Source of the DNA: Nitrosopumilus sp.
Lineage (GTDB): Archaea > Thermoproteota > Nitrososphaeria > Nitrososphaerales > Nitrosopumilaceae
Direction of reading: 5' to 3'
NCBI GenBank assembly: GCA_965203315.1
Contig: CBDBCE010000004.1
Coordinates: 64,001 to 128,000, forward strand
DNA: 64,000 bases
Part shown: positions 4,898 through 60,837 of the stretch, in pieces
Layout: each line of letters starts with the position of its first letter
Numbering within the stretch: the first letter of the stretch is position 1
The notes under the pieces: model-generated
What the model saw: only the letters and a program-made list of their open reading frames with translations
Told to the model about the DNA's origin: nothing
Database searches by the model: none
Translations under genes and position numbers: made by a program

Positions 4898-5470
4898 ATG
4901 CTCCTCTATTTTATTTTCGTAATACAGGAAGAAGATTATGGTAGACGTAATTTCGAGTTCAACTATATTAAAGACATGGCTAGATTTTACAGATCCTGGC
5001 TATTTAACAAATTTAAGATCAAATGTGACGTCAAGTGTGATACGATGCTTACTAGGCCACAGAGTATACTACAACGTCTAGACACTCATACTCTCTTGAG
5101 TGATCATAAACTACGTGGTTCTGGTACATTTCATTTTTATCTGACACACTTTAGACCTCTCTGGACTGATTGTACATGTGAAGGGTATCACGCACCAAAC
5201 TTTGCGATGATCTATTGGCAGAGACCTAAAGAGCCTAACGATACTCTCTTTCTTGCAGAAAAGAATTGTACTGTCGTATCACACGAACTATTACACGAAG
5301 TCTTGCGGATATCTGGAACGAAACGATATATTCAAGATGTTCATGATGTATGGACTAGACATTTTTATGACAAGTTGGAGTTTGAACAGTACGATGTGCA
5401 TCACAATACCACACTCGAAAAACCAATGTTTCTTACAATGGACACATCATCATTTGTATCTCGTAACTAG
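4898..5470 (+). CDS. Hypothetical protein with HExxH (zincin-like) motif
   Basis: SHELLHEVL; CTC motif; likely co-transcribed with the Lrp gene. Confidence 0.7.
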   Translation: MLLYFIFVIQEEDYGRRNFEFNYIKDMARFYRSWLFNKFKIKCDVKCDTMLTRPQSILQRLDTHTLLSDHKLRGSGTFHFYLTHFRPLWTDCTCEGYHAPNFAMIYWQRPKEPNDTLFLAEKNCTVVSHELLHEVLRISGTKRYIQDVHDVWTRHFYDKLEFEQYDVHHNTTLEKPMFLTMDTSSFVSRN

Positions 5471-5476
5471 GTATGT

Positions 5477-6115
5477 TCAACCTAGTCGTTTACTATCGTA
5501 GATCTTGTTCTTAAAGTTGGCTATCTTGAACTCTAGTTTATTCTCCGAGTCTCCAGACCTCTCTTTGCTAAGGTTCTCCAACTCTACCAAAGCATCTCCT
5601 TTGAAACCTACCGATGATGCATAGATTGCATCGAATAGCATTGTACCATGATCGCCTTGTTTGATATCGTTAGCTATCTCGTAAAACTGTGTGATCTGGT
5701 TCTTGTTTACAGGACGACCTGTAGGTTTATTGACTGCAACCGCGATATACATTCCATTACTCTTTACTGCTACCTGAATTTTGTGATCTTTTTTACTCTT
5801 ACCTGGAATAGTCTCGTCTACCAAGATCTCACACTTGTGGTACATACTAGATATGTACACAAAAAATCGATACTGTGCATACTTGCCTGCAGCATCCTCT
5901 TCACAATCGACAAATACTTTGTGCAATAGTTCGAGTGCTTCATCATTCATGCTTTGTAGACGATCATCGATTCTACCACGTTCCAATAGATTTGATTTAC
6001 ACTCCTTTGCTATCAGTTCTAAGATAAATTCTGGTAGGTTATAGTTTTTGAGTGTAGCAACAAAAGCACCCGCTTGAGACATACCAAATTTTGGGAACCC
6101 TTTATTGACCATCAC
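5477..6115 (-). CDS. Hypothetical protein, C-terminal restriction-endonuclease-like fold (probably inactive)
   Basis: IPGKSKKDHKIQV resembles the GKSGxxHxxD lead-in of Mrr/PD-(D/E)xK folds, with Q in place of D. Confidence 0.6.
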   Translation of the reverse strand: MMVNKGFPKFGMSQAGAFVATLKNYNLPEFILELIAKECKSNLLERGRIDDRLQSMNDEALELLHKVFVDCEEDAAGKYAQYRFFVYISSMYHKCEILVDETIPGKSKKDHKIQVAVKSNGMYIAVAVNKPTGRPVNKNQITQFYEIANDIKQGDHGTMLFDAIYASSVGFKGDALVELENLSKERSGDSENKLEFKIANFKNKIYDSKRLG

Positions 6116-6211
6116 AAAACCCCATCAAACTATTCAACAGTCTATAATATGACTCTATTAGCTTATAATTGTTAAGAATGGTTAAAATTCAAGACAATTT
6201 AGAGTTATACC

Positions 6212-8467
6212 ATGGAGATTGAGACCACCCTGCAAGATGTGTCATCCATATATGATACTATGAAGAATAACATTGCTCAATTTCGTAATATTGTCAAACG
6301 TCCACTAACTCTAACTGAAAAGATCCTTGTTGGTCACATGTATAATATCACTGACGTACCTACATCTGGCAAAGACTATGTATCTCTCAAATCAGATCGA
6401 GTTGCATTACAAGACGTTACCGGACAGATGGTAATGCTGCAGTTTATGCAAGCTGGTATAGAACGAGTTAGATTGCCTACGACTGTCCACTGCGATCATC
6501 TGATCAGAGCTGAGGTTCAAGGAGACGTTGACATGAAGGTGTCATTAAATGAGAACAATGAGGTCTTTGAATTTTTACAGTCTGCTGCAGCAAAGTATGG
6601 CTGTGGATTTTGGAAACCTGGTGCTGGAATAATACACCAGGTAGTTTTAGAAAATTATGCATTTCCAGGTGGATTGATGATTGGAACAGACTCACATACT
6701 CCAAATGCTGGTGGATTAGGAATGATTGCCATCGGAGTTGGTGGTCTAGACGCTGCAGAGGCGATGGCTGGAATGCCGTTTGAACTATTGTATCCGAAAC
6801 GAATTGGTGTTAAACTCGTAGGCAAACTTGGAGGATGGACTGCACCAAAAGATATCATCTTAAAGATCGCAGAAATATTGACCGTATCTGGAGGAACAAA
6901 TGCTATTGTTGAGTACTTTGGTCCTGGTACCAGCTCTATCAGCTGTACAGGAAAAGCTACTATAACAAATATGGGCGCAGAGATTGGGGCTACATGCTCG
7001 ATCTTTCCATATGACGAACGGATGGCTACATATCTCAGATACACCAATCGCTCATCTATTGCAGATATTGCAGACAAGAACATATCTCTCTTGACGCCTG
7101 ATCCAGAGATCAATGATGATCCAGAACGCTTCTATGATCAAGTTATAGAGATCGATCTAGACAAACTTGAACCACACGTTGTTGGACCACACACTCCAGA
7201 TCTTGCAAGACCTATATCTGATCTTGCTAGTGATGTTGCTAAACATGAGTACATTGATCAAATATCTGTTGCACTAGTTGGCAGCTGTACAAACTCTTCC
7301 TATGAAGATATGTCAAGAGCTGCTAGCATAGCTATTCAAGCAAAACTACATGGAGTATCGTCAAAGATTCCATTACTGGTTACACCTGGCTCAGAGCAGA
7401 TTCGTGGAACCATCGAGCGTGATGGTCAGATGGATAGCCTCAAAGAGATCGGTGCAACAGTTCTTGCAAACGCATGTGGTCCATGTATTGGACAGTGGAG
7501 TAGACCAGAACTTGGTGAGCGTGAAGCTAACACAATCATTACCAGCTTTAACAGAAACTTTCCTGGACGAAATGACGGTCATCGTAGCACATTAAACTTT
7601 ATTGCCAGTCCTGAGATGATAGTTGCTCTATCGCTTGGTGGTAGACTATCATTCAATCCCTTGGATGACGAACTTGTAGCAGATGATGGCACAAAGTTCA
7701 AACTTGAACCACCAAAACCTGCACCAGAAGTTCCTCCAAATGGATTTGTAAGACCTATTGGCGTATATGTTGCGCCACCAAGTACATCTGACGTAGATGT
7801 TATCTTGGATCCGAATAGCAATAGACTCCAACGTCTAGAACCATTTGATCCATGGAATGGCAAAGACTTTGAGAGGCTGCCTATACTGGTAAAAGCAAAA
7901 GGTAAATGTACTACCGATCATATCTCGCCTGCCGGCGCATGGTTGTCTTTACGTGGGCATCTCGATAATCTTAGCGATAACATGCTCTTGGGAGCTGTCA
8001 ACGCATTTGATGACAGAGTTGGTTCTGGTAAGAATGTCTTGTCGGGAGAGATTGAGCCTTTTGCAAAGATTGCTCGACACTACAAAAAGGAGCAGATTCG
8101 TTGGGTTATCATCGGTGATCACAACTATGGTGAGGGCAGTAGTCGTGAACATGCTGCAATGACCCCAAGATATCTTGGTTGTGCTGCAGTTATTGCAAAG
8201 AGCATGGCGCGAATACACGAGACCAATCTAAAAAAGCAAGGAATACTCGCATTGACATTTGCCAATCCAGACGACTATGACAAGATATGTGAAGACGATA
8301 AACTAAGTCTGATTGATCTCTCTTCAATGAAGCCACAAGAACCTATCCGTTGTATATTGTATCATGCTGACAATACTCGAGATACTATTGTACTGAATCA
8401 CTCGTACAATACATCGCAGATAGCATGGTTTCGAGCAGGTTCTGCACTAAACATTCTACAAAATTGA
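6212..8467 (+). CDS. acn: Aconitate hydratase
   Basis: DRVALQD, HCDH, DSHTPN, GSCTNSS, ACGPCIGQW, TTDHISPAG, GSSREHAA. Confidence 0.97.
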   Translation: MEIETTLQDVSSIYDTMKNNIAQFRNIVKRPLTLTEKILVGHMYNITDVPTSGKDYVSLKSDRVALQDVTGQMVMLQFMQAGIERVRLPTTVHCDHLIRAEVQGDVDMKVSLNENNEVFEFLQSAAAKYGCGFWKPGAGIIHQVVLENYAFPGGLMIGTDSHTPNAGGLGMIAIGVGGLDAAEAMAGMPFELLYPKRIGVKLVGKLGGWTAPKDIILKIAEILTVSGGTNAIVEYFGPGTSSISCTGKATITNMGAEIGATCSIFPYDERMATYLRYTNRSSIADIADKNISLLTPDPEINDDPERFYDQVIEIDLDKLEPHVVGPHTPDLARPISDLASDVAKHEYIDQISVALVGSCTNSSYEDMSRAASIAIQAKLHGVSSKIPLLVTPGSEQIRGTIERDGQMDSLKEIGATVLANACGPCIGQWSRPELGEREANTIITSFNRNFPGRNDGHRSTLNFIASPEMIVALSLGGRLSFNPLDDELVADDGTKFKLEPPKPAPEVPPNGFVRPIGVYVAPPSTSDVDVILDPNSNRLQRLEPFDPWNGKDFERLPILVKAKGKCTTDHISPAGAWLSLRGHLDNLSDNMLLGAVNAFDDRVGSGKNVLSGEIEPFAKIARHYKKEQIRWVIIGDHNYGEGSSREHAAMTPRYLGCAAVIAKSMARIHETNLKKQGILALTFANPDDYDKICEDDKLSLIDLSSMKPQEPIRCILYHADNTRDTIVLNHSYNTSQIAWFRAGSALNILQN

Positions 8468-8959: not shown

Positions 8960-9075
8960 GGATCTCTTCGATTTGTGTGGGATGAATGATTACAGAAAAA
9001 GCATTACAAGATTCTATGAGAGAAAATTAGAAAAAAGCCTTGCGAAACGTCATCCCACATAAGCCGAAAAGATCC
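8960..9075. mobile_element. MITE family A, copy 1 (116 bp)
   Basis: ~25-bp imperfect TIR GGATCTCTTCGATTTGTGTGGGATG / CATCCCACATAAGCCGAAAAGATCC; homologous copies at 17133, 44501 and 45703. Confidence 0.85.
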
Positions 9076-10234: not shown

Positions 10235-10409
10235 GGTTCTGTTCAATTGATGGGGGGTTGAGATCGTGATGACGTTATCTCAAAGAACGCACAATATGAG
10301 ACTCAACAGCAGAATTTACGATAGCCAGTATGGGACCGTTTCCATATTTTGCAAAACTTTTCGAGAATTTTGTGCAGAAAATGCTACCTCTTGTCAAGTT
10401 GAAAGAACC
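10235..10409. mobile_element. MITE family B, copy 1 (175 bp)
   Basis: TIR GGTTCTGTTCAATTGA / TCAAGTTGAAAGAACC; inverted homologue at 45497-45674. Confidence 0.88.
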
Positions 10410-10451
10410 TAAAAAACAGTTTAATATCAAAGGCTAGTATCTATTGTTATT

Positions 10452-17132: not shown

Positions 17133-17246
17133 GGTTCTCTTCGATTTATGTGGGATGCATTTTACAAGACTTTTCCTAAATCTTCCATACAGAATTTTGC
17201 GTGCTTTTTCTGTGAAAATTCTATTCCGCATAAATCGAAGAGATCC
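17133..17246. mobile_element. MITE family A, copy 2
   Basis: GGTTCTCTTCGATTTATGTGGGAT ... TTCCGCATAAATCGAAGAGATCC. Confidence 0.85.
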
Positions 17247-17615
17247 TTCAGATTATCTCTCTATTGCGGGAATTGATGATCTTTTATCTGTGTGATTCAA
17301 TCGACATCATGCTTTGATGATCTAAACGTGTTTGATATAGGCGATTAGTTATCAATTGCCCCCAAATGACCCTTGAACTACGTACGAATTTAATGTCCGA
17401 AATCCGTCAAAAAATGAAGAGATGCGTCAGTAACTGATTGAAAGTCAATCGATTCTATCTCAACATGTTCGAATTTCGTATCTGTTTTACCGTGTTATCG
17501 ATCAGCAGGTTTGGGGGCTTGATATCCCACATCGCCTTTTTTTTATGTACATGTCGTGTCGACTCGATATCGTACTTGCGAGTACTTGCCACAAGTTGAA
17601 TAGCATACAAGATAC

Positions 17616-17648
17616 TTTTATAAGATACGGGGGGGGGGGGGATAATTA
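17616..17648 (+). promoter_or_regulatory. TATA box followed by a G13 homopolymer (17629-17641)
   Basis: TTTTATAAG-ATAC-G13-ATAATTA-TTG start. Confidence 0.8.
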
Positions 17649-20600
17649 TTGAGTAAACGTCGTCTAATGCCTATTCTAGCTTTGATAACAGTTGTACCGT
17701 TTCTGGTGGTTGATCTAGACGATGCGTTTGGGGCGGTTATACCTCCACTTGATTATCCTGCCATATCGAGTTTAGGTCATCCAGGAGGTTTACGTTCTGA
17801 TATTCACTCTAGCGGAATCCCACTTGTCAAACATAGCAACAATAGCGCAACTATTAATCTTGACACATCTTATGATCACTATAGAATTGACCCTGTCTAT
17901 CAACCTGAAGGAGATATTACAATAGACAAGGTCACAATGATACTACCAAACCCTAAATTGACATCAATTGGCTGTACAGTCAAGTTTGGAGTAAACAACG
18001 TTGGTGCCAATCCATCTAATGCAATTCACGAGTATGCTAAACTACCTACTAATGTCGATGGTAGCATCTATACCAATTTAGCTGAAAGCGATGTTAAAGT
18101 AATCGGTGTAGACTTTAAAGACTATTCCTCTGGCTGCGACGTCTCTACTCTTACCACTGCAAACTCTACAAATGAACCACTACTCACAGACAAATCTATG
18201 AGAGTTACCATTTATGGTCAGGCTGGCAAAAAGGCGTTCTTTTCCTCACACTTTGAAAATATCACCAAGGCTCAACTGATCCCAGAGTGTACTAGTGCAA
18301 ACTTTGACAACAGTACCAAACAACTCAAAGGACAAACTCGTATGTGTTCTGGTACGTATAACAATGATCTAGTCATAATAACAACGCAAATAGGAGAGTA
18401 TGGTGCTACTAGTACAATTCTTCCGCCCGATACACTGCCTATAATACCGCCTAGCAGTTTCCCTACCACAGTTACTACATCTCGTATACCGTTGTCAAGT
18501 GCAGCTAGCAGCGACAATGCAACAATTGGCAGTACCAATAACACTCGATATCAGATAGATGGTACTCTTACTCAAGCACAGGTCAAGGCCGGTGATATCT
18601 ATATGCAAGGTACAACAACGATACTCTCAAATCCATTCTTTACCGGAAAGAGTTACTCTTGTAATTTCGAGGCACTCTCGATCCATGCTCAAGGTGCGTG
18701 GCGAGGAGGTAATTTTGATTACCCTGCTAATATACAACCAAAAGGTAACGCAAACAATCCTGCATCGCTGTCATTTAATGGACTTGGTAATTGTGCATTT
18801 TGGTCTCCTACACACTCGATGATAACAGACAAAGAGATGCGAATCACCATATACGACAAGTCAGGCAGTAAAGCATGGTATCTATCCCCTAGTCAGAACA
18901 TAACACAAGCGCAACCAATTCCTGCATGTACAACCGAGACACTTGACACAAGCGACAATACTCTCAAAGGCAACACAAAGATGTGTTATGGTGTGTATAG
19001 TGATCATTTGATAATTGTTACAAAGAGATTCATTGGAGCTTATGGATCTGCTACTACGATCACACCACCACAGAATCCCGTAGATCTTGATCTAGTATAC
19101 CCAATCCCTCCAGGTACACTGTCCATACCACCACCTAGTGGTTTTCCTACTTCCCTTACTAGTAGTGATGCTCCATACATGTCAGCTCAACTAGCTAGCG
19201 ACAATGGAACAATTGGTGCTACCAGCCCCAAACGATATCAGATAGATGGTAATCAAAACGTACCGGTCAGGGCAGGCGATATCTACATACAGGGTACCAC
19301 AACGATACTCTCAAATCCATTCTTTGTAGGAAAGGGTTACACATGTCCTTTTAATATATTCTCACTCCATACTGAACGCACTTTTCACGGAGGTGGTTTT
19401 GCTTATCCGACCAATGTACAACCGACAGGTAATGCAACCAATCCTGCATCACTGACATTTCATGGAGACTCTACTTGTGCAAACTGGTCTCCAACACATC
19501 CAATGATCACAGACAAAGAGATGCGAATCACTCTAGACAATAAAACAGGCAGTAAAGCTTGGTATGCGTCACCTCGTCAAAACATAACAGAAGCGCAACC
19601 AATTCCTGCATGTACTACCGATACAATAAATGTCAGTACCGGTAAACTCAAGGGCAACACAAAGATGTGTTATGGTGTATACGAAGGTGAACTGATCATC
19701 ATAACCAAGAGATTCTTGGGATACTATGGATCTGCTGATACAATCACGACACCACAGAATCCAGTTGACCTCGATTCCGACAGACCTACGCTTGCACCCA
19801 CAACACCAGATCCAGGCAGTTCAGGCACATTAACAATACCACCACTAACCAATTCGAGCAGTTCTTCTGCAATGAATTTTGATTCAGACACAGAACACGA
19901 TGGTTCGATATACTATGATGGCGACTCTAAAAGATACACAGACGAAAGTGGCAACGATGCTACCGCTGATCTCTATGTGGCACGAGGTACTGAGACACTC
20001 CCACGCGCTCTATTTGAAGGCACTGGTGATTATCAGTGTACTGGAAATTTTGAACGTGTTGAATTCCTCGGCAAAAAGCGTGTTCCAGGCTTTGCCATAC
20101 CAGATAATGTAACTCCTGATAAAAAGAAGCAACTAGCTGCATATGGACTAGACTTTTACAACAATACAGTATCATCAACAACATCATGCAGACCAAATCC
20201 TGAAGCCGTCTCTGATCAAACACTGATAACCGACACTGCACTGCGAATCACCATATACGGCAAGGCAGACAAAAAGCCTATCTACTTTTCACCACGTGAC
20301 GGAATACTCAAAGCTCAACCAATACCTGCATGTACAACTGACATGATCGACACAAGTAACAACAATGCTCTCAAAGGCGGCAATACTGTATGTTATGGCG
20401 TACACGGTAATGACATGGTAATCATAACAAAACGACTGACTGGGTTTTATGGTGCTGCAGACAGCGTTACAACACCCGCAAATCCTATAGACCTCAATCC
20501 AGCTACAGTCATTAATATCGATCCAAAGATATTGTCTATACCATCGGTAACCGAAACGAAACGTTATAGTCAAGCGACTTTTCAGTCAAATTCAGCTAAT

Positions 20601-23600
20601 GACAGCAAGATATTCTATGCCGGACCCTCTTCTAGATTCACCGATCATGGTACAAAACCAACTGGTGATATCTATCTCGTACAAGATACTACAACACTCG
20701 TACATCCACTGTTCAGCGGCGCCGGCGACTATAGATGTTTTGCAGGTTTAGCACATGTTGTAACTCTTAACACAACCATGGTACCAAGCTTTGCCCTACC
20801 AGATAATATAGTTCCTAAAACACCTCTGCGTAGTGTATATGCATACGGACTAGACTTTTTTAACGACAATACTAATACAACAACAAAATGTTCACCAGAT
20901 CCCGAAGCTGTACATAGCCAACCACTAGTAACCGACAAAGAGATGCGATATACGATATATGGCAAGGCAGAGAAAACACCCTACTACTTTTCTCCACGTG
21001 ACGGAATAACAGAGGCTCAACCAATTCCAATGTGTACCACCGACATGATCGACACAAGCAACAATGCTCTCAAGGGTAACAATACTGTGTGTTTTGGTAG
21101 AAACGGCACAGATATGGTCATTATAACAAAACGACTGACTGGGTTTTATGGCGTAGCAGACAGCGTTACAACACCTGCAGATCCAACAGATCTCAATGCC
21201 GCTATACCTGTTGCATCTCTTACCAATCCCATAACCGGTAAAATACAAACACACGAATACTATACTGAAAAGATAAACAGTACATCTCTGATAGAATATC
21301 CCAACCCTGTCTTTTTGTACAACACGTTACCTCTTTGCGAGGACTCTGTTCATGGCACACATCAGACAATACAAATGACAACAAAAGGAGATATTTTGTT
21401 CAAGTATGCTCTAAACGGAGTACAGTTTGATGGCAGGCTATTCCTGACTCTGACAGATCACACTCCCAAAAAGACCATATCGCTAGACTCTAACTTTGTC
21501 CAACAGCGTGGTAATTGGTACAACTATAACAGTACTCTTCCAAAGAGTATACTGGATCAGTTTGGCAACTTTACCAGCATAAACGCCAGACTGTTTGTGA
21601 CCAATGACACCATACCAGACCAGAATATTTTCAGCAACAGCTCTACAGGTTCGCCTCTATACTATAAAAGCCAGAAAAAGGCTATCATGGAGTTGCCAAA
21701 TGCTGCAGATACAGTGACCTTTGTACCTGGTAAAGTACCAGGTGTCCGTGGCAATGTACATGTTCCACAGGGTGATACCGTACCACTAACCGCAGAGATA
21801 CTGTGCCAGTTTGGTCATATACAACCATCTCCCTCAGCTCAGGTATTTGATCTAGATATATCTGCAGATAACGCAACAAACGGTCTCGAGATAAAGTATG
21901 AATTTACATCAAAGACGTTCTATCAAGGTGCAAAGGAACAGAAACCCACAAAGTTCTTTTGGATTGCAACCGACTCTGACGGCAACTCTGTCAACGGCGA
22001 TACAACTCGTACCATAACCAATTCATACAACTTTGTCATTCCTCTAAATTCATCTGGTACATATGATATAGTGATGTATGGCTCTGATGCTGAACGTACA
22101 CTCATAGGTACACATGCCGGTTCGTACACGTTTGCAGCTAGTACATCAACACCTAGCCAAACACTAACGATAACCATACCAAATACCACTCCGTCTACTG
22201 CAACTATTGGTCTCAATACTCAGACAGCAAACGAGATAAAGTTCATCACTAGAGAGACCTCTCAAGGCAGCGGTACTAGATATCATCACCATGATGATGA
22301 TTCTGATGATACTAGGGCCGACATTACCATCCATTATAACACAAAGATAACCAGCAAAACATTCAGTGTCACATCAAATTCATTCTGTTATAATGCTGAA
22401 GTAAAAGTTGGCGATGATATTACGATACCAAAGTTGAACAACTATACGGCATTGGCACTAGAGATCACCGACTTTACTCCCAAATGTACCAACTATCCCA
22501 ATATATCATTTGACGGTAAACTGGTATTAAACAAAGAGGTCTATATACGATTAAATGGCACAGACGGTCAAAACATCTTTTATCATGTGAACGGCACAAA
22601 CGACATTGTACAGATACCAAAGTGTACCAGTACCAACTTTAATTCCGCCGACAATACCCTAAAGGGCAGTACGGAAATATGTTACGGCAAAGACGGTACA
22701 GACACCGTCATCGTATCCAAGATACTTGCAATCTTTGGAGCGACAACAGAGTCTATTCCAAAGCCTGGTACTTCGACTGGTCCAGGTACAACAAAACCTA
22801 CGACTGGAGATGATCAAGACGACAAAGACTCTGATACATCAAGAGATCTAGCAAATGCGCCAACCTTTGGTGTCTCACAGCTTACCGGTGAACAGTTGGT
22901 AACATGTGGTTATAAAATGGACGACACATGTCGTGATATTACTGCATATCACGTCCAGTACGAACGAGACACAATCCAAACCAACACAACGCACACATTT
23001 GCAATAAAGACACTGGCACCAAACATGTTACACAATGTTATACTGGCATTTAGTGTACCTACAGTAGGCTCTCCGGTGAGTGCAGCAGAAGCATACATTT
23101 CTGTACATCTTGGAATAAACTATAGTGAACCATCGCACTATTACATCGAGAATGTACTAGTACACGATCCAAACAACATCATCGACTATGACACACAAAA
23201 CACAACAGTATCTAGGGTGTCATGTTCAGGTGACGATCTACAGTGTACACAAGTGACATTCCCAGATGTGCTGTTCCGTGATATGATGAACCATGAACCA
23301 TTTGCAATACAAGTAACTGATACTCTACGATTCACATCCATAAACTACATGAACGAAGGTGTCTTTGTTACTGGTACATCCCTAAACGCACCACCAACTG
23401 TACAACCAGGACTCACACTATCGGGTGACGATGGTAGACCAGTAAATCTCGTTCTAGTCCGTACAGACAAGGTCTCTGATCTGTGGGCAGATGCATTCGG
23501 CAACACTTGGAGTCGCAACTCGTTTGGCAACTTTGTCATTGTACAATATGCACCATACGCAGGTACTACTCCAGTATGTACAGACATCAACGACAGAATA

Positions 23601-23783
23601 TGTGCACCATTCAAAGCTAAACTCGACTGGCACAATCAAAAGATGATCGAACTACGTGACTCGCTATACGATGCATACAAGACAAAGGCATACGCCGAGA
23701 TCGACAACATATTCACATACGAGTTTGGTGATGTAGACTCTCGCACTAGAACACTGATCAACCTAGGCTGGCTGACCGAATAA
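17649..23783 (+). CDS. Giant secreted/surface protein (2044 aa) with six related Cys-containing modules
   Basis: Signal-peptide-like N-terminus; repeated TDKxMRxTIYG..AQPIPxCT..LKGxTxxCYG..IITKR motif; Thr/Pro linkers. Confidence 0.9.
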   Translation: MSKRRLMPILALITVVPFLVVDLDDAFGAVIPPLDYPAISSLGHPGGLRSDIHSSGIPLVKHSNNSATINLDTSYDHYRIDPVYQPEGDITIDKVTMILPNPKLTSIGCTVKFGVNNVGANPSNAIHEYAKLPTNVDGSIYTNLAESDVKVIGVDFKDYSSGCDVSTLTTANSTNEPLLTDKSMRVTIYGQAGKKAFFSSHFENITKAQLIPECTSANFDNSTKQLKGQTRMCSGTYNNDLVIITTQIGEYGATSTILPPDTLPIIPPSSFPTTVTTSRIPLSSAASSDNATIGSTNNTRYQIDGTLTQAQVKAGDIYMQGTTTILSNPFFTGKSYSCNFEALSIHAQGAWRGGNFDYPANIQPKGNANNPASLSFNGLGNCAFWSPTHSMITDKEMRITIYDKSGSKAWYLSPSQNITQAQPIPACTTETLDTSDNTLKGNTKMCYGVYSDHLIIVTKRFIGAYGSATTITPPQNPVDLDLVYPIPPGTLSIPPPSGFPTSLTSSDAPYMSAQLASDNGTIGATSPKRYQIDGNQNVPVRAGDIYIQGTTTILSNPFFVGKGYTCPFNIFSLHTERTFHGGGFAYPTNVQPTGNATNPASLTFHGDSTCANWSPTHPMITDKEMRITLDNKTGSKAWYASPRQNITEAQPIPACTTDTINVSTGKLKGNTKMCYGVYEGELIIITKRFLGYYGSADTITTPQNPVDLDSDRPTLAPTTPDPGSSGTLTIPPLTNSSSSSAMNFDSDTEHDGSIYYDGDSKRYTDESGNDATADLYVARGTETLPRALFEGTGDYQCTGNFERVEFLGKKRVPGFAIPDNVTPDKKKQLAAYGLDFYNNTVSSTTSCRPNPEAVSDQTLITDTALRITIYGKADKKPIYFSPRDGILKAQPIPACTTDMIDTSNNNALKGGNTVCYGVHGNDMVIITKRLTGFYGAADSVTTPANPIDLNPATVINIDPKILSIPSVTETKRYSQATFQSNSANDSKIFYAGPSSRFTDHGTKPTGDIYLVQDTTTLVHPLFSGAGDYRCFAGLAHVVTLNTTMVPSFALPDNIVPKTPLRSVYAYGLDFFNDNTNTTTKCSPDPEAVHSQPLVTDKEMRYTIYGKAEKTPYYFSPRDGITEAQPIPMCTTDMIDTSNNALKGNNTVCFGRNGTDMVIITKRLTGFYGVADSVTTPADPTDLNAAIPVASLTNPITGKIQTHEYYTEKINSTSLIEYPNPVFLYNTLPLCEDSVHGTHQTIQMTTKGDILFKYALNGVQFDGRLFLTLTDHTPKKTISLDSNFVQQRGNWYNYNSTLPKSILDQFGNFTSINARLFVTNDTIPDQNIFSNSSTGSPLYYKSQKKAIMELPNAADTVTFVPGKVPGVRGNVHVPQGDTVPLTAEILCQFGHIQPSPSAQVFDLDISADNATNGLEIKYEFTSKTFYQGAKEQKPTKFFWIATDSDGNSVNGDTTRTITNSYNFVIPLNSSGTYDIVMYGSDAERTLIGTHAGSYTFAASTSTPSQTLTITIPNTTPSTATIGLNTQTANEIKFITRETSQGSGTRYHHHDDDSDDTRADITIHYNTKITSKTFSVTSNSFCYNAEVKVGDDITIPKLNNYTALALEITDFTPKCTNYPNISFDGKLVLNKEVYIRLNGTDGQNIFYHVNGTNDIVQIPKCTSTNFNSADNTLKGSTEICYGKDGTDTVIVSKILAIFGATTESIPKPGTSTGPGTTKPTTGDDQDDKDSDTSRDLANAPTFGVSQLTGEQLVTCGYKMDDTCRDITAYHVQYERDTIQTNTTHTFAIKTLAPNMLHNVILAFSVPTVGSPVSAAEAYISVHLGINYSEPSHYYIENVLVHDPNNIIDYDTQNTTVSRVSCSGDDLQCTQVTFPDVLFRDMMNHEPFAIQVTDTLRFTSINYMNEGVFVTGTSLNAPPTVQPGLTLSGDDGRPVNLVLVRTDKVSDLWADAFGNTWSRNSFGNFVIVQYAPYAGTTPVCTDINDRICAPFKAKLDWHNQKMIELRDSLYDAYKTKAYAEIDNIFTYEFGDVDSRTRTLINLGWLTE
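18440..21200 (+). repeat. Two pairs of intragenic tandem duplications (periods 687 bp and about 700 bp)
   Basis: CGATATCAGATAGATGGT at 18546 and 19233; ATAACAAAACGACTGACTGGGTTTTATGG at 20424 and 21123. Confidence 0.9.
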
Positions 23784-23827: not shown

Positions 23828-25073
23828 CAGACATCGCAAATGTACGTGTAAATTTTGGCATCTAGGGTGCAATCGGCTCAGGCGGAGGCTCAGGTGGGAT
23901 CTCGATCAATGTTTGCACTGTTTTAAGAAACAAGCTTTGGTACATCTTGTGAGATGTGATACCTTCAACCAACAATACAAGATTGAATATAGTCCACAAG
24001 TTTAGCAACATTTGTGCAGACATGAACATGTATGTTCTACACGGTGTTGATCTACTGTGAGTTCTAACACGCATATTTCGAGTAAATTTGAATCCATTCT
24101 CAATCTCCCAACGATCGCGATATTTCTCTAGATCAATATTTGGATCATTTGTTGCAAATGCTCTATACTCTTCTGGGTCATCTCTGTCACGAGTTATTAT
24201 GATGTAACATCCTGCTTGATCCTTGTTGTTCTTTATTACATATTTTGACACTCTAACTCGTTCTCCTCGTTTGTATTCCTCTATTGCTTTTTTTATGCCA
24301 GAAGTGTTTACGCATGGCATCAGATATTTGTGTCTAGTTCCATTCAAGAATTTGATCATAGCAACTGAATAAAACCCACGATCGGCAACAAACAGCGCTG
24401 GTCTTGTAGAGTTTATTTCGTAAAAATCTACAATTTTAGGCATAAAATCAGCATTTTTTTCCCCTTTTTTGACTGAAAATGTAGATAAAACAAGTCTTGT
24501 GCCGGGGTTGACCAGCTGTGCAGAGATGTGTGTCTCAAATACAGTCGTACCATCTTTCGCTCTACCCTTAATCAGATCTGGATTATCTTTATCATATCTT
24601 GAAAAACTCGTTCTGTCTACTCCAATGATAGGATGTCGAGGAAAGCGACCAAGCCGTTTTAGCTCTGACAGGTGTTGCGTCACGGCATACTTGAATATCT
24701 CATCTATCGGTTTCTCACACGTCTCTTCGATCCTCTTCCTAATCCATTCGCCTGTAGGTGCATAACCATCACTATCTCTGATCAATCTGGAACGATCAGC
24801 AGGAGATTTGTTTGCTACTGCCGCATCTATGATGATCTTGAGTCCGTCCCATTTTGTGTATTTGGCATTGTGATAATTAGATACTTTGAATGGTATCTGA
24901 TCCATAGCGTTTATGAAAATATATCTATAAGTAGAACGGTTTCTAGATACTGCTTGTCTCAGCGAGTCTGATTGTTTGCGCATTAGATTCCTGAGACATG
25001 CAATCCTTATTGACTTTGTTTGATCGATATTTTTGATCTTTTGGTTAAATTATAGTTACTTTTGCGATGTCTG
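23828..25073 (-). mobile_element. Complete IS (ISH3/IS4-like), 1246 bp, with 6-bp target-site duplication GTCATT
   Basis: TIR CAGACATCGCAAA(T/A)GTA at both ends; GTCATT at 23822-27 and 25074-79. Confidence 0.92.
23862..24983 (-). CDS. DDE transposase (ISH3-like)
   Basis: IIGVD, ADRGFYS, YRDRWEIENGFK (YREK-type motif). Confidence 0.92.
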   Translation of the reverse strand: MRKQSDSLRQAVSRNRSTYRYIFINAMDQIPFKVSNYHNAKYTKWDGLKIIIDAAVANKSPADRSRLIRDSDGYAPTGEWIRKRIEETCEKPIDEIFKYAVTQHLSELKRLGRFPRHPIIGVDRTSFSRYDKDNPDLIKGRAKDGTTVFETHISAQLVNPGTRLVLSTFSVKKGEKNADFMPKIVDFYEINSTRPALFVADRGFYSVAMIKFLNGTRHKYLMPCVNTSGIKKAIEEYKRGERVRVSKYVIKNNKDQAGCYIIITRDRDDPEEYRAFATNDPNIDLEKYRDRWEIENGFKFTRNMRVRTHSRSTPCRTYMFMSAQMLLNLWTIFNLVLLVEGITSHKMYQSLFLKTVQTLIEIPPEPPPEPIAP

Positions 25074-33472: not shown

Positions 33473-35158
33473 CTATGACTCTACGTTTGGGAAGCAATTT
33501 GCCTTGTCTATTAGGATATTATATTCACCAACTAGTGGATTTATCTCATCTACGATATTATTGATCTTGTCTACTAGGGGGTTAGATTTGGCTACTAGTC
33601 CCCTATAGTCTACACTGGGGTCTCGTTCAATATCCTCTGGTGTTAATCCATACTTGGCCAACACGTCGATATATTCTTGGAACAACATGTTGTACTCGTC
33701 ATTGAGTAGTTCCAATCGTTGATCCAACCTATCGATCTTATCCTGATTCGCTTTTTGACCTATATAGTGATCATATTTGCTTGAAATTGGTGGTATCTCG
33801 TATCCCATATCATCAAATGATATTTGTGTGAACTCGTCAGATCCGTACATCAAATGTGATTCAGATGAGTGATGAGCAAGACCTAGAGCATGACCAATCT
33901 CGTGCATTATTGTATCGGACACACTGTTTGTATCAAGCTGAATATATGATCCTGTACAATCTCGATTGCCTAGCGAGATTAAAAGTTCACAGTAGGCATA
34001 TTCGCAGATTGCCAATCCAACGTGTTCATCTTGTACAAATCTATCCCACGATACTATGATATCTGCATCAGGATGTTTTATTTGAATAAAGGTTAACGTG
34101 GGATTTAGCGACTGCCAGATTGCAAATGCTTGATGTGTGGCAACAATTGGTATTGTTTTATTTGTTACAGGAATTGATGAATTGATATAGTATGTGATTG
34201 GACTGTATTCGGAATCTACCGGTACGACTGTTATGGTACTATTCGTTGCGCGTATGTTGAGAAAACACTCTGCCCGTTCTACCAAAATAGATCGCTTGCT
34301 GTCTAGAATATTCATCTGTACGTTTATCTCGTCGATCTTGTCTTGAATGGGATTTAGTCGATGTACCATACTAGAGGGATAATTGTAGATACTATCTTTG
34401 ATATCTTTAAGAGTCACTCCATACTCTGCTAGTATCTTGTTGTATTGTTGTTCTAAATCTTTACGTTTTTGTTGTAATTGCGTCCGCTGCTCATCCAATG
34501 CATTGATATCATCTAGTATGGGTTCTTGCTCTGTATAGTATGCAGAGTCGAGTGGCTTTGGTATTGTGTATAAAGTATTTAGTGTATCTTTGGTATTTGT
34601 GCCATACATTAGATGAGATTTGTCATCGGTGTTACTGATACCTAAAAGATGTCCGATATCCTGCATGATCTCTGTAGTAATACTATCCGAGCTTCGATGT
34701 ACATATCTTCCATTACAGTCAGTTGTACCTAACAATACTATTATCTTACATTTGCTATAATCACATTCGATGTTTGAATATTCTCGATCTGTAGACTTGA
34801 TCCCTGATACTATGATATCTGCATCATCTGATGCTAAATGAGTAAAGGTTAGCGATGGGTTTAGTTCTTGCCATGATACAAATGCTTTATGTACTGCATC
34901 TGTTATACTGCTTGATGTGGGTGATGGATCTATATAGTATGTGTAAGATCTAGATTGTGTGTTATCTGGACTCTGACCGTATATTGGAGTGATAAACTCA
35001 TCTGTGCTTAGTATGACTGTGAATATCAGCATAACAAATGATGTTGTCATAACTGCTCTATCTCTAAATTCATTCCGTACTATACATTTGCTCACAATCT
35101 GTTCTAAATGATTAGATGCGTAAAAACCATCCTGTCTTAATCTATTCATGTCCGTCAT
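33473..35158 (-). CDS. Secreted/membrane-anchored matrixin (M10-like) metalloprotease with duplicated domain
   Basis: HEIGHALGLAH plus Met-turn HLMYG in domain 2; QDIGHLLGISN in domain 1; N-terminal hydrophobic segment. Confidence 0.88.
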   Translation of the reverse strand: MTDMNRLRQDGFYASNHLEQIVSKCIVRNEFRDRAVMTTSFVMLIFTVILSTDEFITPIYGQSPDNTQSRSYTYYIDPSPTSSSITDAVHKAFVSWQELNPSLTFTHLASDDADIIVSGIKSTDREYSNIECDYSKCKIIVLLGTTDCNGRYVHRSSDSITTEIMQDIGHLLGISNTDDKSHLMYGTNTKDTLNTLYTIPKPLDSAYYTEQEPILDDINALDEQRTQLQQKRKDLEQQYNKILAEYGVTLKDIKDSIYNYPSSMVHRLNPIQDKIDEINVQMNILDSKRSILVERAECFLNIRATNSTITVVPVDSEYSPITYYINSSIPVTNKTIPIVATHQAFAIWQSLNPTLTFIQIKHPDADIIVSWDRFVQDEHVGLAICEYAYCELLISLGNRDCTGSYIQLDTNSVSDTIMHEIGHALGLAHHSSESHLMYGSDEFTQISFDDMGYEIPPISSKYDHYIGQKANQDKIDRLDQRLELLNDEYNMLFQEYIDVLAKYGLTPEDIERDPSVDYRGLVAKSNPLVDKINNIVDEINPLVGEYNILIDKANCFPNVES

Positions 35159-44500: not shown

Positions 44501-44620
44501 GGATCTCTTCGATTTATGTGAAATGACGTTTCACAAGGCTTTTTTTACATAATTTTTCTCTATAGGCTAGTGCAGTGCTTTTTCTATACCCGTTCTCTCT
44601 CATGTACACCGAAAAGATCC
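44501..44620. mobile_element. MITE family A, copy 3
   Basis: GGATCTCTTCGATTTATGTG ... CCGAAAAGATCC. Confidence 0.85.
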
Positions 44621-45344
44621 TTATGACGATCTAACATCCTACGATTTGTGCATATTCATCGACTCAATGTATACTCTAACGCAATAGATGCAGGGAGGGC
44701 GACGATTCCAATCACAAAAATCCTATGGATATCTTTAACTGCTTTGACTTGGAATCAATCTTTGACTCTAGACTATATGCGTATTATTAAGAGTGCTCAT
44801 GTCCGACCATCAAACATGACCACAACGAATCAATTTGCCTCTAGAAATCACATGTGTGTTTGATTGTGTCTCAAAATATGCACAAGACATAAGAAATACG
44901 CATACAGTCTTCTGCATCCTTCAAACAGTTGATGTACTCGTCATATAAAAATTCATAATAGTTGTCAGGCATCTCTAACCATCCCTGAAATTCTGTCTCT
45001 TTTTTTATTTCAGCTAGTTTTTCGCCCAAGAAAGGAACTCTGTGATTCAGGACTGTTTAATCTTATGCATGACAAAATAGTTGTTAATAGTAATACGGTA
45101 CTGACTAAAATGCCTACATGCCAGTATGTGAAAACACCCTCTTGGTCTAGTGTCGGTATGGAGAATCGAAGAAATATGGCAAGATAATTCCGGCAATTGT
45201 CATCACATTTGTTGCTTTTTTGTCAAATATTCGGATGATATGTTGTGTCGATCAAGCTGTAGTCTTAACTCCTCTAGAAATGTCTTGCCCATAGAACTAG
45301 GAGCAAGTACAAACATTGATAAGTTTAGTAATGAATATAGTATT

Positions 45345-45452: not shown

Positions 45453-45496
45453 ATACCAAATTTCCTAGTATCGCATACTGATAACGAGTTACATGA

Positions 45497-45674
45497 GGTT
45501 CTGTTCAATTGACGGGTGTTGCCATTTTTTGCACAAAATTCTTGAAAAATTTTGCAAAATATAGAAACGACATCATGTCGGCTATCGTAAATTGCTACTG
45601 TTTTGAGTCTCATATTGGGCGTTCTTTAAGATAACGTCATCATCCTCTCAACCCCCCGTCAATTGAACAGAACC
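45497..45674. mobile_element. MITE family B, copy 2 (inverted relative to copy 1)
   Basis: Perfect 20-bp TIR GGTTCTGTTCAATTGACGGG / CCCGTCAATTGAACAGAACC. Confidence 0.9.
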
Positions 45675-45702: not shown

Positions 45703-45821
45703 TGATCCTTTTCGGTTTGATATTGTCCTAGCGGTTAAATTTTACTAACACTTGCGATGCCGTTATGGAATCTTGTAGTGCTTTTTGTAACCATTCTATT
45801 CCATGTAGATCGAAGAGATCC
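45703..45821. mobile_element. MITE family A, copy 4 (left interior divergent)
   Basis: GATCCTTTTCGG ... GAATCTTGTAGTGCTTTT ... ATCGAAGAGATCC. Confidence 0.7.
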
Positions 45822-45864
45822 TTTGACGATCATACAACTAAAGATACTAAACTAAACATGTACA

Positions 45865-47851: not shown

Positions 47852-48913
47852 TCACAAATCAAGTGAATCTAAAATATCGTGTATGTTATTTGGACCGACT
47901 TTTACAGACACCGTCTTTTTAGTTTCGAGTATATCTGCTATATTCTCTGATGATGTAGTGCTGCGTTTGGTTGTGGTCTTGATAACTCGATCAATATTGG
48001 CACCGATCTGTGTAGCATCCGCAGATAGATCACTCTCTGCTCCTGAAAGAGGTAACGCAAGGGTCTTTTTTGCAGATAAAACACATTTTATCGCATCATC
48101 GATATCTGTGTGTTGATGTAGTAGAGGTGACAATGCGAGAGATACTCGTTCTGATTCTTGTGATAGCAGCGTCATTAGGATCAGATTATAGTTACGGTTA
48201 TCCATACAAAAGAAGTTGAGATCAATAGAATCTTGAATCATTCTGGGAATTATTCTGTTTATCATCTTTACCAGAGTCATCAATTCAGATTTGAGTCGAT
48301 AACAGATTATTATCTCTGTGTTGTATCCTTGTCTTATTGTTTCATAACATGCTATTGCAGATAGATCATCATATACCGCACAAACAGTATCTCTTTTATC
48401 TCCAAACGGAACACCTCCGTTTCCATCATCTATATAGATACAGACATATGCACTAGTCTTTGTCAAGTATGTGTATAGTCGCTTGTCATGATCATGAATA
48501 GTTCCTGGTCGAGCTCCGAGATTTGATCTCTTTTCAATAATACTAGATGTTGCCGCCATCTCTACATCTTTTGTCAGGAATCCTTTAGATACTCCTTCTA
48601 CTTGTACAACAAATCTTTCGCCACGTAACAACAAGTTACCGCCTAACGATGTTATTGTAGATACTATGTCGTCAAAGTTGTTGTTGGTCTTTCTTGTAAT
48701 GGCAATCTTTTGTATGCCAAACAAGAGGTTTATGGCAGACGACGCAAAGACGGGATCATTTGCGCGAACAATAATTATGTCTCCATCACGCTTTACTGTC
48801 TGAAACTTTTGATTCTTTAGTTTAAGGATCTCTTTAATGTTTGATATGAGAAGTGGAATCTTTTTCTTTGCAAACATGGTTGGAAATACTACCACATATG
48901 ATGTTTCATCCAT
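47852..48913 (-). CDS. THUMP-domain ThiI-like protein
   Basis: N-terminal ferredoxin-like plus THUMP region (LFGIQKI, GNGGVPFG); PP-loop degenerate. Confidence 0.72.
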   Translation of the reverse strand: MDETSYVVVFPTMFAKKKIPLLISNIKEILKLKNQKFQTVKRDGDIIIVRANDPVFASSAINLLFGIQKIAITRKTNNNFDDIVSTITSLGGNLLLRGERFVVQVEGVSKGFLTKDVEMAATSSIIEKRSNLGARPGTIHDHDKRLYTYLTKTSAYVCIYIDDGNGGVPFGDKRDTVCAVYDDLSAIACYETIRQGYNTEIIICYRLKSELMTLVKMINRIIPRMIQDSIDLNFFCMDNRNYNLILMTLLSQESERVSLALSPLLHQHTDIDDAIKCVLSAKKTLALPLSGAESDLSADATQIGANIDRVIKTTTKRSTTSSENIADILETKKTVSVKVGPNNIHDILDSLDL

Positions 48914-49162
48914 GATACGTATAGTAAATCCCCGTTTATAACTCAGAATGGATATGTAATGTCTTGTTCACACCAGATCCATGTTTTATGTGATTTAGAA
49001 CGTAATCTATCATCTCCTAGTCATCTATGGGTAAGACTATCTCGAGCGACTAGAATCACATACTATGAGATCAAATCGGCTTGGATTATACCTAGATATC
49101 TGTTAGACGATCTTTCTATTGACACTTGTAAAACAGATTTATTCGTCATATGACATGTCTAT

Positions 49163-58887: not shown

Positions 58888-58915
58888 TGTTATAAGGGGG
58901 GGGGGGAGTTCTTTT
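58888..58915 (+). promoter_or_regulatory. TATA box followed by a G11 homopolymer (58896-58906)
   Basis: GTTATAA-G11-AGTTCTTTT-GTG start. Confidence 0.75.
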
Positions 58916-59776
58916 GTGAAATTTCTCATTGGTATCCTTGTTACAGTATCTCTTATTGGAGTTATAGGTCTAGTCGATAACGCTGAAGCAGAATCATATC
59001 AAGAAGTAGATTTAGGATTGATATTGTCTACTTGTAATACAAAACCAATAGAACTAACTTCAAAGTTCATTCACTTAACAAATCATACTGACATATACAT
59101 TAGTAATCTAAATTCTCATAGTTTTCTTAGAAATCACTATGAAGGAAAGGAAACTGAAGGACTAAAAAACATACAAACGGAAAGACCAAATCAACATTGG
59201 CGTGATAGTGAAAGGATAATAATAATAATTTCTGAAGAAGCTGTTTATTGGGATATTGGATATTATCATAATGATAGTAATTACAGACATTCGTATTGTG
59301 AAAGAACTTATTATGACAAATTTGGAAATTTAGGGAATCAAACTAAAGAACATTATGAATATTATGGAGATTATGAAATAAGCGGATTACTAAAACCTAT
59401 AACATGGAACTTATCAGATGAACCTCAAATACAAAAACGGAACAAAATTAATGATGAGTATATCATAAACCTGATAGCAAAAACTTTCAACTTGACACCA
59501 GATAACCAACCAGATAGAACAGAAACAGTATCTAATGAACAGATCCAGAAACTCAAAGACAAGAACAAGGAACTCAAGAACAAACACCAAGCTTGTAATA
59601 ATGATAAAGATAGAGTAGTATCTGAACTATCTGAACTGCAGTCTAGATTTACTATACTGGAAACAAACTCTAATCAAACTCAATCTCAACTGAATGAAGC
59701 CTTATTCACAATAGAGAAACTTACAACTCAACTGAATGAAGCCAAGAAAAAGATAGAGGAGTTAGAATCGCCATGA
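58916..59776 (+). CDS. Secreted protein with C-terminal coiled coil
   Basis: GTG start gives signal peptide MKFLIGILVTVSLIGVIGLVDNAEA; heptad tail. Confidence 0.8.
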   Translation: MKFLIGILVTVSLIGVIGLVDNAEAESYQEVDLGLILSTCNTKPIELTSKFIHLTNHTDIYISNLNSHSFLRNHYEGKETEGLKNIQTERPNQHWRDSERIIIIISEEAVYWDIGYYHNDSNYRHSYCERTYYDKFGNLGNQTKEHYEYYGDYEISGLLKPITWNLSDEPQIQKRNKINDEYIINLIAKTFNLTPDNQPDRTETVSNEQIQKLKDKNKELKNKHQACNNDKDRVVSELSELQSRFTILETNSNQTQSQLNEALFTIEKLTTQLNEAKKKIEELESP

Positions 59777-60837
59777 AGGTTCTAATTTTGAGTCTTACTA
59801 CAGTATTTACTATCATGCTATTTGGCATATCTGATGTATATGCAGATCATTCACTTAACTATCAATCACATGGAACATTAGATGTTAGAATTAACAACTG
59901 TACTAGTTTTACCGTATTCGGAAATACAGATGAACCAAACCACCCTTTCCGTTTTGGATATGAGTTTTATGAATATCTTGGTAAAGATGACAACAACCAG
60001 CCTCATTTTATTAGCTATGAAGAACTTTCTAACTGGTCACATTCATTTTTTCCTAACAAAGATGGAAGTTTTGAGTTTACAGTATCAGTACCCATGACAA
60101 AGACTGTAAAGAATTATGGTTTCAATGAACGTACAGGTAATTGGGTTTCTACAAATACATATGACATTACACTATCAAAACTTTATCAAGGACATGTAGA
60201 CTTATACTTTAGTCAAAGTCATTACAAACCACATAGATCAGATTTTGTAGTTGATAATACTATATTTGATGTTATTGGTAATAGTACAAAAATAAATGTT
60301 AGAAACAACACAGATACAAATCAATTATGTTTCTATAAGATTACTTGCCCTTACAAATACTGTAATTATCCAGATGATTATACAGAAGTTGAAAACACAC
60401 CATCTATACAAGAACCAACTGCACCAAAGACCAAACTGCAGATAGCTAACGAGAATATCACAAATCTTGAAACCCAGATAGATAAATTTGAAACCAAGAA
60501 AGATAAACTCAAAGGCTTAAAGGACAACTGGAAAGAGAAATTTAAGCAATGCAAAGATGATAGAAAGGATCTAAGAACTGAAGTTGAATCATACAAGTCT
60601 AAATTCAACACAATAGAATCTCTATACAACACAACAGAAACGCAACGATCAGAACTTGAGAGACTATACACAGATTTAGATTTAGAACATGATAGAGTAA
60701 AACAAGAACTAGATGAAGCTAAAAATACCATATCTGGTCTATACTCACAATACTATGATTTACAATCCATACACAACTCAACCTTGAATGAACTGAATGA
60801 ACTTAGGGATCGAATGCAAGAGTTAGATTCTCAATAA
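59773..60837 (+). CDS. Secreted protein with long C-terminal coiled coil
   Basis: Signal peptide MKVLILSLTTVFTIMLFGISDVYA; ATGA overlap with the upstream gene. Confidence 0.85.
   Translation: MKVLILSLTTVFTIMLFGISDVYADHSLNYQSHGTLDVRINNCTSFTVFGNTDEPNHPFRFGYEFYEYLGKDDNNQPHFISYEELSNWSHSFFPNKDGSFEFTVSVPMTKTVKNYGFNERTGNWVSTNTYDITLSKLYQGHVDLYFSQSHYKPHRSDFVVDNTIFDVIGNSTKINVRNNTDTNQLCFYKITCPYKYCNYPDDYTEVENTPSIQEPTAPKTKLQIANENITNLETQIDKFETKKDKLKGLKDNWKEKFKQCKDDRKDLRTEVESYKSKFNTIESLYNTTETQRSELERLYTDLDLEHDRVKQELDEAKNTISGLYSQYYDLQSIHNSTLNELNELRDRMQELDSQ

Follow-up and report, generated by a model that had tools for sequence, protein, structure and literature searches.

G homopolymers between TATA box and start codon of secreted-protein genes in Nitrosopumilus: candidate promoter contingency loci in Archaea

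In bacteria, stochastic switching of surface structures through simple repeats is a central theme of the interactions with hosts, phages and immune systems. In Bordetella, a poly-C tract in the promoter spacer of the fim genes controls transcription of a surface protein. In Mycoplasma hyorhinis, the vlp genes constitute a variable surface family with near-identical 5' ends, and a promoter poly-A tract between the -35 and -10 elements switches its members independently. Here, two G homopolymers located between TATA box and start codon of secreted-protein genes are described in a 64,000-nucleotide (nt) stretch of Nitrosopumilus sp. (assembly GCA_965203315.1, contig CBDBCE010000004.1, positions 64,001 to 128,000 of the forward strand), which is called the window below. 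The first tract (site 1) precedes the gene of a giant secreted or surface protein, and the second (site 2) precedes the gene of a small secreted protein. The same layout was found a third time at a locus of Cenarchaeum sp. (L034). An earlier note, made from the letters of the window, had proposed site 1 as an archaeal phase-variation switch.

The nearest analogue is found in Treponema pallidum, in which homopolymeric G tracts lie in the promoters of a surface-protein multigene family, i.e., tpr/tp0126 (PMC7864442). The tprL tract ends 3 nt before the transcription start site and has 7-11 G within isolates, and reporter output differs between 8 G and 10 G (PMC7864442). In Neisseria meningitidis, transcription of surface proteins is likewise controlled by G/C homopolymers, i.e., poly-G between -35 and -10 of porA and poly-C over -35 of opc (PMC7864442). 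The archaeal loci differ from these systems in promoter type. In T. pallidum, the tract acts on a sigma-70 promoter, either via the -35/-10 spacing or via binding of a regulator, and the mRNAs carry a ribosome-binding site, whereas here the promoter is of the TBP/TFB type, the tract lies between TATA box and start site, and a leaderless mRNA is predicted. Tract length would, in addition, determine whether the transcript includes the start codon. Length variation has been demonstrated in T. pallidum, whereas here it is a prediction. In porA, opc and fim, the tract sets the spacing between two elements recognized by one sigma factor; the distance from an archaeal TATA box, in contrast, sets the start position and not polymerase binding.

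In the full-text literature searched, with subscription journals not covered, no archaeal homopolymer or promoter phase variation was found, in agreement with the earlier note, which knew of no description of the mechanism in these archaea. A 2010 survey covered 18 archaeal genomes and coding-region tracts only (PMC2831843), and a review of 2025 leaves archaeal phylogenies to future studies (PMC11868660).

G tracts and promoter geometry in the window

On the + strand, site 1 consists of TTTTATAAG (17616-17624), ATAC (17625-17628), G13 (17629-17641), ATAATTA (17642-17648) and the start codon TTG (17649-17651). Site 2, on the same strand, consists of TGTTATAA (58888-58895), G11 (58896-58906), AGTTCTTTT and the start codon GTG (58916), with the G11 tract directly abutting the TATA-like element. 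Both tracts are G on the sense strand of the downstream gene. In the 64 kb scanned, which have a G+C content of 39.6%, the two tracts are the sole runs of G or C longer than 6. The expected number of G runs of at least 11 per 64 kb is 7e-4 with independent bases and 1.3e-4 in a first-order model, and two were observed. The lengths of 13 and 11 are as assembled, and each is possibly off by one or two bases. The reading frames across both tracts were also examined for length variants in protein databases, and none of use was found.

The placement of the tracts was compared with random placement by Monte Carlo simulation, i.e., 200,000 placements per run length in intergenic DNA only. A randomly placed run fell wholly within a sense-strand 30-nt upstream spacer with P = 0.039 for 13 nt and P = 0.043 for 11 nt. 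The probability that both tracts lie in such spacers by chance is 0.0017, with signal-peptide genes not yet required. At this level the earlier note holds: its reading of 17616-17651 is exact to the base, its two long G runs are indeed the only ones, both lie between TATA box and start codon of a signal-peptide gene, and random placement, which it had named as an objection, finds little support within the window.

For promoter geometry, the 100 nt upstream of 51 ORF (open reading frame) starts were aligned, and a small fixed set of TATA-like 6-mers was counted by position. This count was used instead of expectation-maximization motif discovery, which drifted to a GATC-containing motif and not to TATA. 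Half of the TATA-like matches (14/28) lay at -36..-26 from the start codons, with a concentration at -32..-26, versus 3.2 expected if uniform, and 12 of the 51 genes had such a 6-mer in this interval. The G+C content fell to 0.16-0.27 at -28..-24. Because the TATA-like peak and the AT peak occur at such distances from start codons, transcription in the window is probably leaderless. In the literature, all 11 Thaumarchaeota analyzed (11/11) were assigned to the leaderless-prevalent class, with a promoter box approximately 26 nt from gene starts (PMC6028130). The tract-bearing genes look leaderless or nearly so, and the leaderless premise of the proposed switch is supported by both the window distances and this classification.

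The TATA box of the giant gene, TTTTATAA (17616..17623, + strand), has its 5' edge 33 nt before TTG, i.e., in the commonest register of the window. The 5' edge of the TATA-like element of the second gene, TGTTATAA (58888..58895, + strand), is 28 nt before GTG, at the short end, and that of L034 is at -31; all three are within the window distribution. The distance from TATA box to tract is 5, 0 and 5-6 nt, and from tract to start codon 7, 9 and 6 nt, at site 1, site 2 and L034, respectively.

The promoter consensus of Pyrococcus furiosus includes a TFB-recognition element (BRE), RRAAA, at -36..-32, a TATA box at -30..-23, a pyrimidine-purine initiator and an AT-rich melted region at -11..-2 (PMC6640164). 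By the rule of TATA plus approximately 30 nt, the transcription start of the giant gene is predicted within the AT-rich ATAATTA (17642..17648, + strand), which offers pyrimidine-purine steps at T17643/A17644 and T17647/A17648. The predicted starts of all three genes fall on such steps, 0-5 nt before the start codons. Relative to them, the tracts would occupy about -17..-5 at site 1 (17629..17641, + strand, with the predicted start at 17646), -20..-10 at site 2 (58896..58906, + strand) and -16..-6 at L034. Because the predicted starts lie after the tracts, the tracts would not be transcribed.

In their consensus TATA box at the usual distance and in the pyrimidine-purine steps at the predicted start, these promoters resemble the canonical archaeal promoter. 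They differ from it in the melted region, in which approximately half of the AT-rich -11..-2 positions are G:C pairs. AT-rich sequence is confined to the final 4-9 nt ahead of the start, and the tracts would replace the upstream half of the usually AT-rich region with G:C pairs. Since the tract covers part of the melted region, an effect on melting is conceivable in addition to one on spacing, a point that the earlier note did not raise. No other gene start of the window has a melted region replaced by G:C pairs; the nearest case is TTATAAAcGGGG before the gene at 48913(-). A candidate TFB-recognition element, AGATA (17610..17614, + strand), matches four of the five positions of the P. furiosus RRAAA at -36..-32. 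ATAC precedes the TATA box at site 1 and L034, and no clear BRE was seen at site 2.

Two minor promoter observations were made. The promoter of the minus-strand gene 47852-48913 (48914-48945) reads TTATAAA-c-GGGG, i.e., a four-G run stands straight after the TATA box. This gene has a sub-threshold ThiI-like match and lacks a signal peptide, and the arrangement may be a coincidence. In addition, ATCT or GATCT stands immediately before many start codons, e.g., 3813, 25324, 40757(-), 53554, 55784 and 61664, and could represent the initiator context of this organism's leaderless genes.

The secreted products and the Cenarchaeum locus

The giant gene (17649..23783, + strand) starts with TTG and encodes a 2044-amino-acid (aa) secreted or surface protein with a signal peptide, approximately five tandem repeats and a 310-aa C-terminal module. 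The ORF cannot begin further upstream because an in-frame TAA is present at 17643-17645. The two closest full-length relatives, P0004 and P0007, start with MSKRRL and MSKHRL, aligned with (M)SKRRL of the window protein, and have Ile at the position of its next Met. The conserved start is therefore TTG and not ATG 17667. The protein has a single hydrophobic segment of signal-peptide form (residues 3-31) and 36 N-X-S/T sequons, and its nature as a secreted or extracellular protein is well supported. The tandem units of approximately 230 aa are spaced by 684-720 nt between 18184 and 21204 and share 60-82% DNA identity; this repeat array could itself change copy number. No Pfam or NCBIfam family was found for the whole protein or for the C-terminal module.

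The C-terminal module (22851-23780) shows 76-94% identity across the 11 close relatives aligned. It was detected in 470 representative proteins at E ≤1e-3 (266 at 1e-10), nearly always at the C-terminus of host proteins of 300 to 7,500 aa. A structural model from a 36-sequence alignment reached a predicted local distance difference test (pLDDT) score of 88.7, and in it a long helix follows two beta-sandwich domains; an earlier model from 12 close sequences was unusable (pLDDT 41.5). When the model was searched with Foldseek against PDB, only generic tandem immunoglobulin-like matches were obtained, with template-modelling scores ≤0.25, and no specific family was indicated. The module probably represents a so far undescribed domain for the anchoring or assembly of archaeal surface proteins.

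A protein from another assembly, P0002 (1728 aa), is identical to residues 7-1701 of the giant protein at 1692 of 1695 positions. After approximately residue 1701 (window ~22750), its frame shifts and an early stop follows, and the C-terminal module is absent. No long homopolymer is present at the break. P0002 could represent a strain variant or a pseudogene, or could stem from an assembly error.

The second tract precedes a gene for a 286-aa protein (58916..59776, + strand), which has a GTG start, the signal peptide MKFLIGILVTVSLIGVIGLVDNAEA and a C-terminal coiled coil. An identical 286-aa protein is known as P0015, and the start at GTG 58916 is supported because the relatives P0016 and P0017 begin at the equivalent residue. 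The only hydrophobic segment comprises residues 1-23, and no match to this protein was found in Atlas. Downstream, a 354-aa paralogue (59773..60837, + strand) with the signal peptide MKVLILSLTTVFTIM... overlaps the previous stop by 4 nt and also has a single N-terminal hydrophobic segment of signal-peptide form. The two genes are probably co-transcribed as a two-gene operon. GAGGAG is located 12-17 nt upstream of the ATG of the 59773 gene. In family-library search, the proteins of site 2 gave only sub-threshold coiled-coil matches. Among the paralogues of the tract-bearing genes, P0003, P0005 and P0014 are encoded on the contig of the window, and P0004, P0007 and P0016 belong to one genome of 1.94 Mb.

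Public genomes (one per species) were scanned at the DNA level with the pattern TTATAA-N0-6-G10. At least 114 stretches matched, and these represent a sample and not a census. Among the matches listed, most were bacterial and 5/114 were archaeal. One of the five, L034, lies on a 1.76-Mb chromosome of Cenarchaeum sp. and has a locus G+C content of 55%. It reads ATACTTTTATAAG-CAGTT-G11-TTGTAT-ATG, and the ORF, which encodes the signal peptide MQKSMMVAFLLPLLVLIPVSAYAQ, extends without a stop to the end of the locus, over 1997 codons. Since TTATAA is palindromic, the scan left the gene free to lie in either orientation to the tract. As a control, 95 of the 114 listed matches were evaluable, the other 19 having a run longer than 20 nt or less than 250 nt of downstream sequence. 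An ORF of at least 80 aa starts within 15 nt of the run in 13 of the 95, and among these 95 listed matches only L034 joins a strongly hydrophobic N-terminus with a giant ORF.

The full L034 protein is P0033 (2409 aa, 100% identical). Its last 275 residues match the C-terminal module of the window protein (E 4.4e-60, 44% identity), which places P0033 and the giant protein in the same superfamily on sequence grounds. It had been considered that the two proteins are unrelated, with a best E of 0.73 for the first 1997 aa in BLASTP; this was rejected, as the shared module lies beyond the end of the locus. The first 1997 aa themselves gave weak beta-propeller lactonase-like matches. When the L034 ORF was extended upstream and searched, all relatives began at the ATG and none was annotated through the tract.

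Among the N-termini of 16 relatives, 11 begin with MQK(S/T), and 8 of these are encoded on the same Cenarchaeum chromosome (1,764,220 bases). The eight giants (P0033, P0169-P0171, P0032 and P0174-P0176; 1476-2838 aa) agree almost completely in their signal peptide (MQKSM..LLPLLVLIPVSAYAQ), but their bodies diverge and their C-terminal ends are of two or three kinds; the promoter was read for one of them only. The upstream ORF in L034 is the C-terminal part of P0169, i.e., two family members occur within 3 kb. Because the paralogues share 5' ends, their bodies diverge and P0169 adjoins P0033, the chromosome holds a clustered multigene family. With their common signal peptide, the eight paralogues resemble the vlp organisation, which differs in being bacterial and in its poly-A tract.

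A shared promoter cassette between the two genera was also considered and rejected, since the alignment of the three promoters showed similarity only in ATACTTTTATAAG and the G run. By this alignment, the resemblance between the genera is one of architecture and not of an inherited cassette. In a protein-guided scan with two peptide patterns of the C-terminal module (one genome per species), 17 stretches matched and none was a relative; the patterns were too narrow, the Cenarchaeum homologues being only 44% identical.

Proposed switching and alternative explanations

Each G tract is proposed to be a hypermutable core-promoter spacer that acts as a contingency switch for a secreted or surface protein, and a probability of approximately 0.5 is assigned to this reading. 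It would take up the larger part of the interval from the TBP/TFB site to the start of transcription, in a gene with no leader or almost none. Runs of 11-13 G are intrinsically prone to replication slippage; the G13, the G11 and the G11 of L034 are all uninterrupted and above the slippage length of approximately 8 nt, and archaeal replicative polymerases slip in vitro (PMC4134008). As archaeal RNA polymerase initiates at a roughly constant distance from the TATA box, each G gained or lost would shift the start relative to the start codon. Losses would bring the start inside or beyond TTG or GTG, and the gene would be silenced. For the giant gene, the alternative after a loss would be initiation at the in-frame ATG 17667, and the resulting protein would lack the charged KRR segment of its signal peptide. 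After gains, the transcript would carry a few more untranslated bases, with a graded effect on translation. The G:C block over the melted region would probably also set promoter strength by depressing open-complex formation. The outcome would be heritable, reversible, cell-to-cell variation in surface proteins.

Small 5' shifts would matter for leaderless mRNAs because both the length of the 5' untranslated region (UTR) and the start codon affect expression (PMC4574771). In haloarchaeal leaderless mRNAs, shortening or deleting a 4-nt 5' UTR and using a GUG start strongly alter expression (PMC4574771), and UUG is avoided on fully leaderless transcripts of Sulfolobus (PMC7531240). Several loci with surface or secreted products are a further mark of contingency systems, and two such loci occur in 64 kb of the window, with one more in Cenarchaeum. 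At the sequence level, the window loci thus have the features of promoter contingency loci and appear to work like one, short of being proven members of the class.

As a tentative and rather doubtful extension, Thaumarchaeota may run a true phasome, i.e., the members of the giant family would each be switched independently by a G tract in the TATA-to-start spacer. The traits of such a family would be the conserved C-terminal module and, in Cenarchaeum, also the shared signal peptide. If true, this mechanism would have no bacterial counterpart, as one base would decide whether the start codon is on a leaderless transcript, and Archaea would have their first known contingency system of the simple-sequence type.

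Several points weigh against switching. Archaea make up roughly the same share of species as of the scan matches listed (5/114), so there is no sign of archaeal enrichment. Four of the five archaeal matches listed do not have the layout: one is a contig-end run in Halorubrum, one is a G10 within coding sequence in Methanobrevibacter, and two are short loci without a fitting ORF. For L034, the adjacency of the TATA box was imposed by the search pattern, whereas the gene start, the signal peptide and the protein family were not. Only three instances of the layout are at hand, i.e., site 1, site 2 and L034, and other secreted-protein genes of the window, e.g., 33473-35158 and 61075-61566, have no tract. 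All three TATA-to-start distances are within the working range, as a fixed functional spacer would also give. A G:C-rich melted region should weaken the promoter, and the true promoter might lie elsewhere. In addition, TTG and GTG are poor or avoided starts on fully leaderless mRNAs (PMC7531240, PMC4574771).

The tract could instead be a fixed cis-regulatory element, either a G:C clamp over the upstream half of the melted region or the site of a G-tract-specific regulator of surface-protein genes, which we consider unlikely but the most serious of the alternatives. With a clamp, the promoter would be weak and would rely on TFE, supercoiling, temperature or an activator. In both cases, length changes would be deleterious noise and not a switch. 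The similar tract lengths (13, 11 and 11) and the TATA-to-start distances within the window range are consistent with this, as is the overlap of the tract with the -11..-2 region, whose sequence in archaeal promoters characterised so far is AT-rich (PMC6640164); the occurrence of one protein superfamily in two genera would fit a shared regulator. However, 11-13 G would mutate fast, and an interrupted G-rich sequence would serve stably, yet none of the three tracts (0/3) is interrupted. A fixed register is also lacking, since neither the distance from TATA box to tract nor that from tract to start codon is constant among the three promoters. If transcription began further upstream, the G run would lie in the leader, where it could be a Shine-Dalgarno-like site for the weak TTG or GTG start, with GGGGG pairing to CCUCC including one G:U pair, or a small-RNA target, and length changes would tune translation. 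The tract does end at classic Shine-Dalgarno spacing, 7, 9 and 6 nt before the start codon, which the earlier note did not consider, and GGAGG-like sites are used in the genome, e.g., GAGGAGG before 38358(-) and GAGGAG before 59773. A described parallel is Helicobacter pylori tlpB, in which a variable G repeat just before the start codon is targeted in the leader by the small RNA RepG, with graded expression as the outcome (PMC8295292); there, the repeat is part of the transcript and takes effect after transcription, and the parallel holds only if the archaeal tract is a leader element. This explanation is improbable, as each tract is preceded, 0-5 nt upstream, by a canonical TATA box at the leaderless distance from the start codon, so transcription would start past the tract. 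No comparably good TATA-like element was found 25-35 nt upstream of either window tract, the best at site 2 being ATAAACTA (58834-58841).

An assembly or sequencing artefact, or a neutral slippage accident, would leave the tracts with no function. Poly-G artefacts are common, and homopolymer lengths are error-prone on several platforms; runs of 19-123 G occur at contig ends in L010, L014, L016, L019, L049, L108 and L109, and resemble the poly-G artefacts of two-colour chemistry. The window sites differ from such runs, as both are internal, with coherent promoter and coding sequence on both sides at the correct spacing. Two chance events in the same slot would have P ~0.0017 or less, and the third tract, found in a separate assembly from another genus, stands before the gene of a further member of the superfamily, which makes lack of function very improbable. 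Finally, the tracts could be a recombination or structure signal, i.e., a G-quadruplex or other non-B DNA that promotes gene conversion among giant paralogues and, thereby, antigenic variation. In Neisseria, the pilE-linked G-quadruplex promotes gene conversion. Eleven G is the minimum for two tetrads with one-base loops, and all three tracts have at least 11. The giant genes are multigene families with conserved ends and variable bodies, and a transposase gene (23862-24983) lies just downstream of the giant gene. Nevertheless, site 2 controls small coiled-coil proteins and not the giant family, the exact placement between TATA box and start is left unexplained, two-tetrad quadruplexes, the only kind that G11-G13 could form, are weak, and the window showed no silent donor cassettes. 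This is the least probable of the explanations considered.

With regard to the contingency switch, the grounds of the earlier interpretation hold in large part: the tracts are real, non-random and promoter-placed, the genes look leaderless, and the layout recurs in a second thaumarchaeal genus. The switching that it drew from them, i.e., expression that follows tract length, stays at the even odds given above. If the tracts vary, the outermost proteins of ammonia-oxidising archaea and of their sponge-symbiont relatives may be subject to bet-hedging, with a bearing on virus resistance, host recognition and population structure. Variable tracts would also offer a natural experiment on the TATA-to-start distance, the sequence of the melted region and the tolerance of leaderless genes to 5' displacement.

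Neighbouring elements and minor observations

The giant gene sits in a mobile-element-rich neighbourhood. Two DDE transposase genes are located at 13-879 and 23862-24983, the second immediately downstream of the giant gene and on the opposite strand to it. An element of approximately 175 nt occurs in inverted copies at 10235-10410 and 45496-45674, which are 35 kb apart and 79-92% complementary, and it contains the only G6 and C6 runs of the window. A short motif (GGATCTCTTCGATTTATGTG...) occurs at six places, i.e., 9031-9075, 17133-17166, 17213-17246, 44501-44545, 44581-44622 and 45782-45823, and one inverted pair of it lies approximately 400 nt upstream of the G13 promoter. These repeat elements are similar to miniature inverted-repeat transposable elements. 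CdvA is also encoded in the window; its nearest Atlas cluster consists mostly of Nitrososphaerota, which makes a thaumarchaeal origin likely.

In the Methanobrevibacter sp. match of the pattern scan (L060), the G10 at 5957-5972 lies inside the 3' part of a 322-aa ORF (5884-6852, minus strand), and a 125-aa ORF (5423-5800) follows on the same strand. In this methanogen, the G10 could serve as a homopolymer frameshift site within coding sequence.

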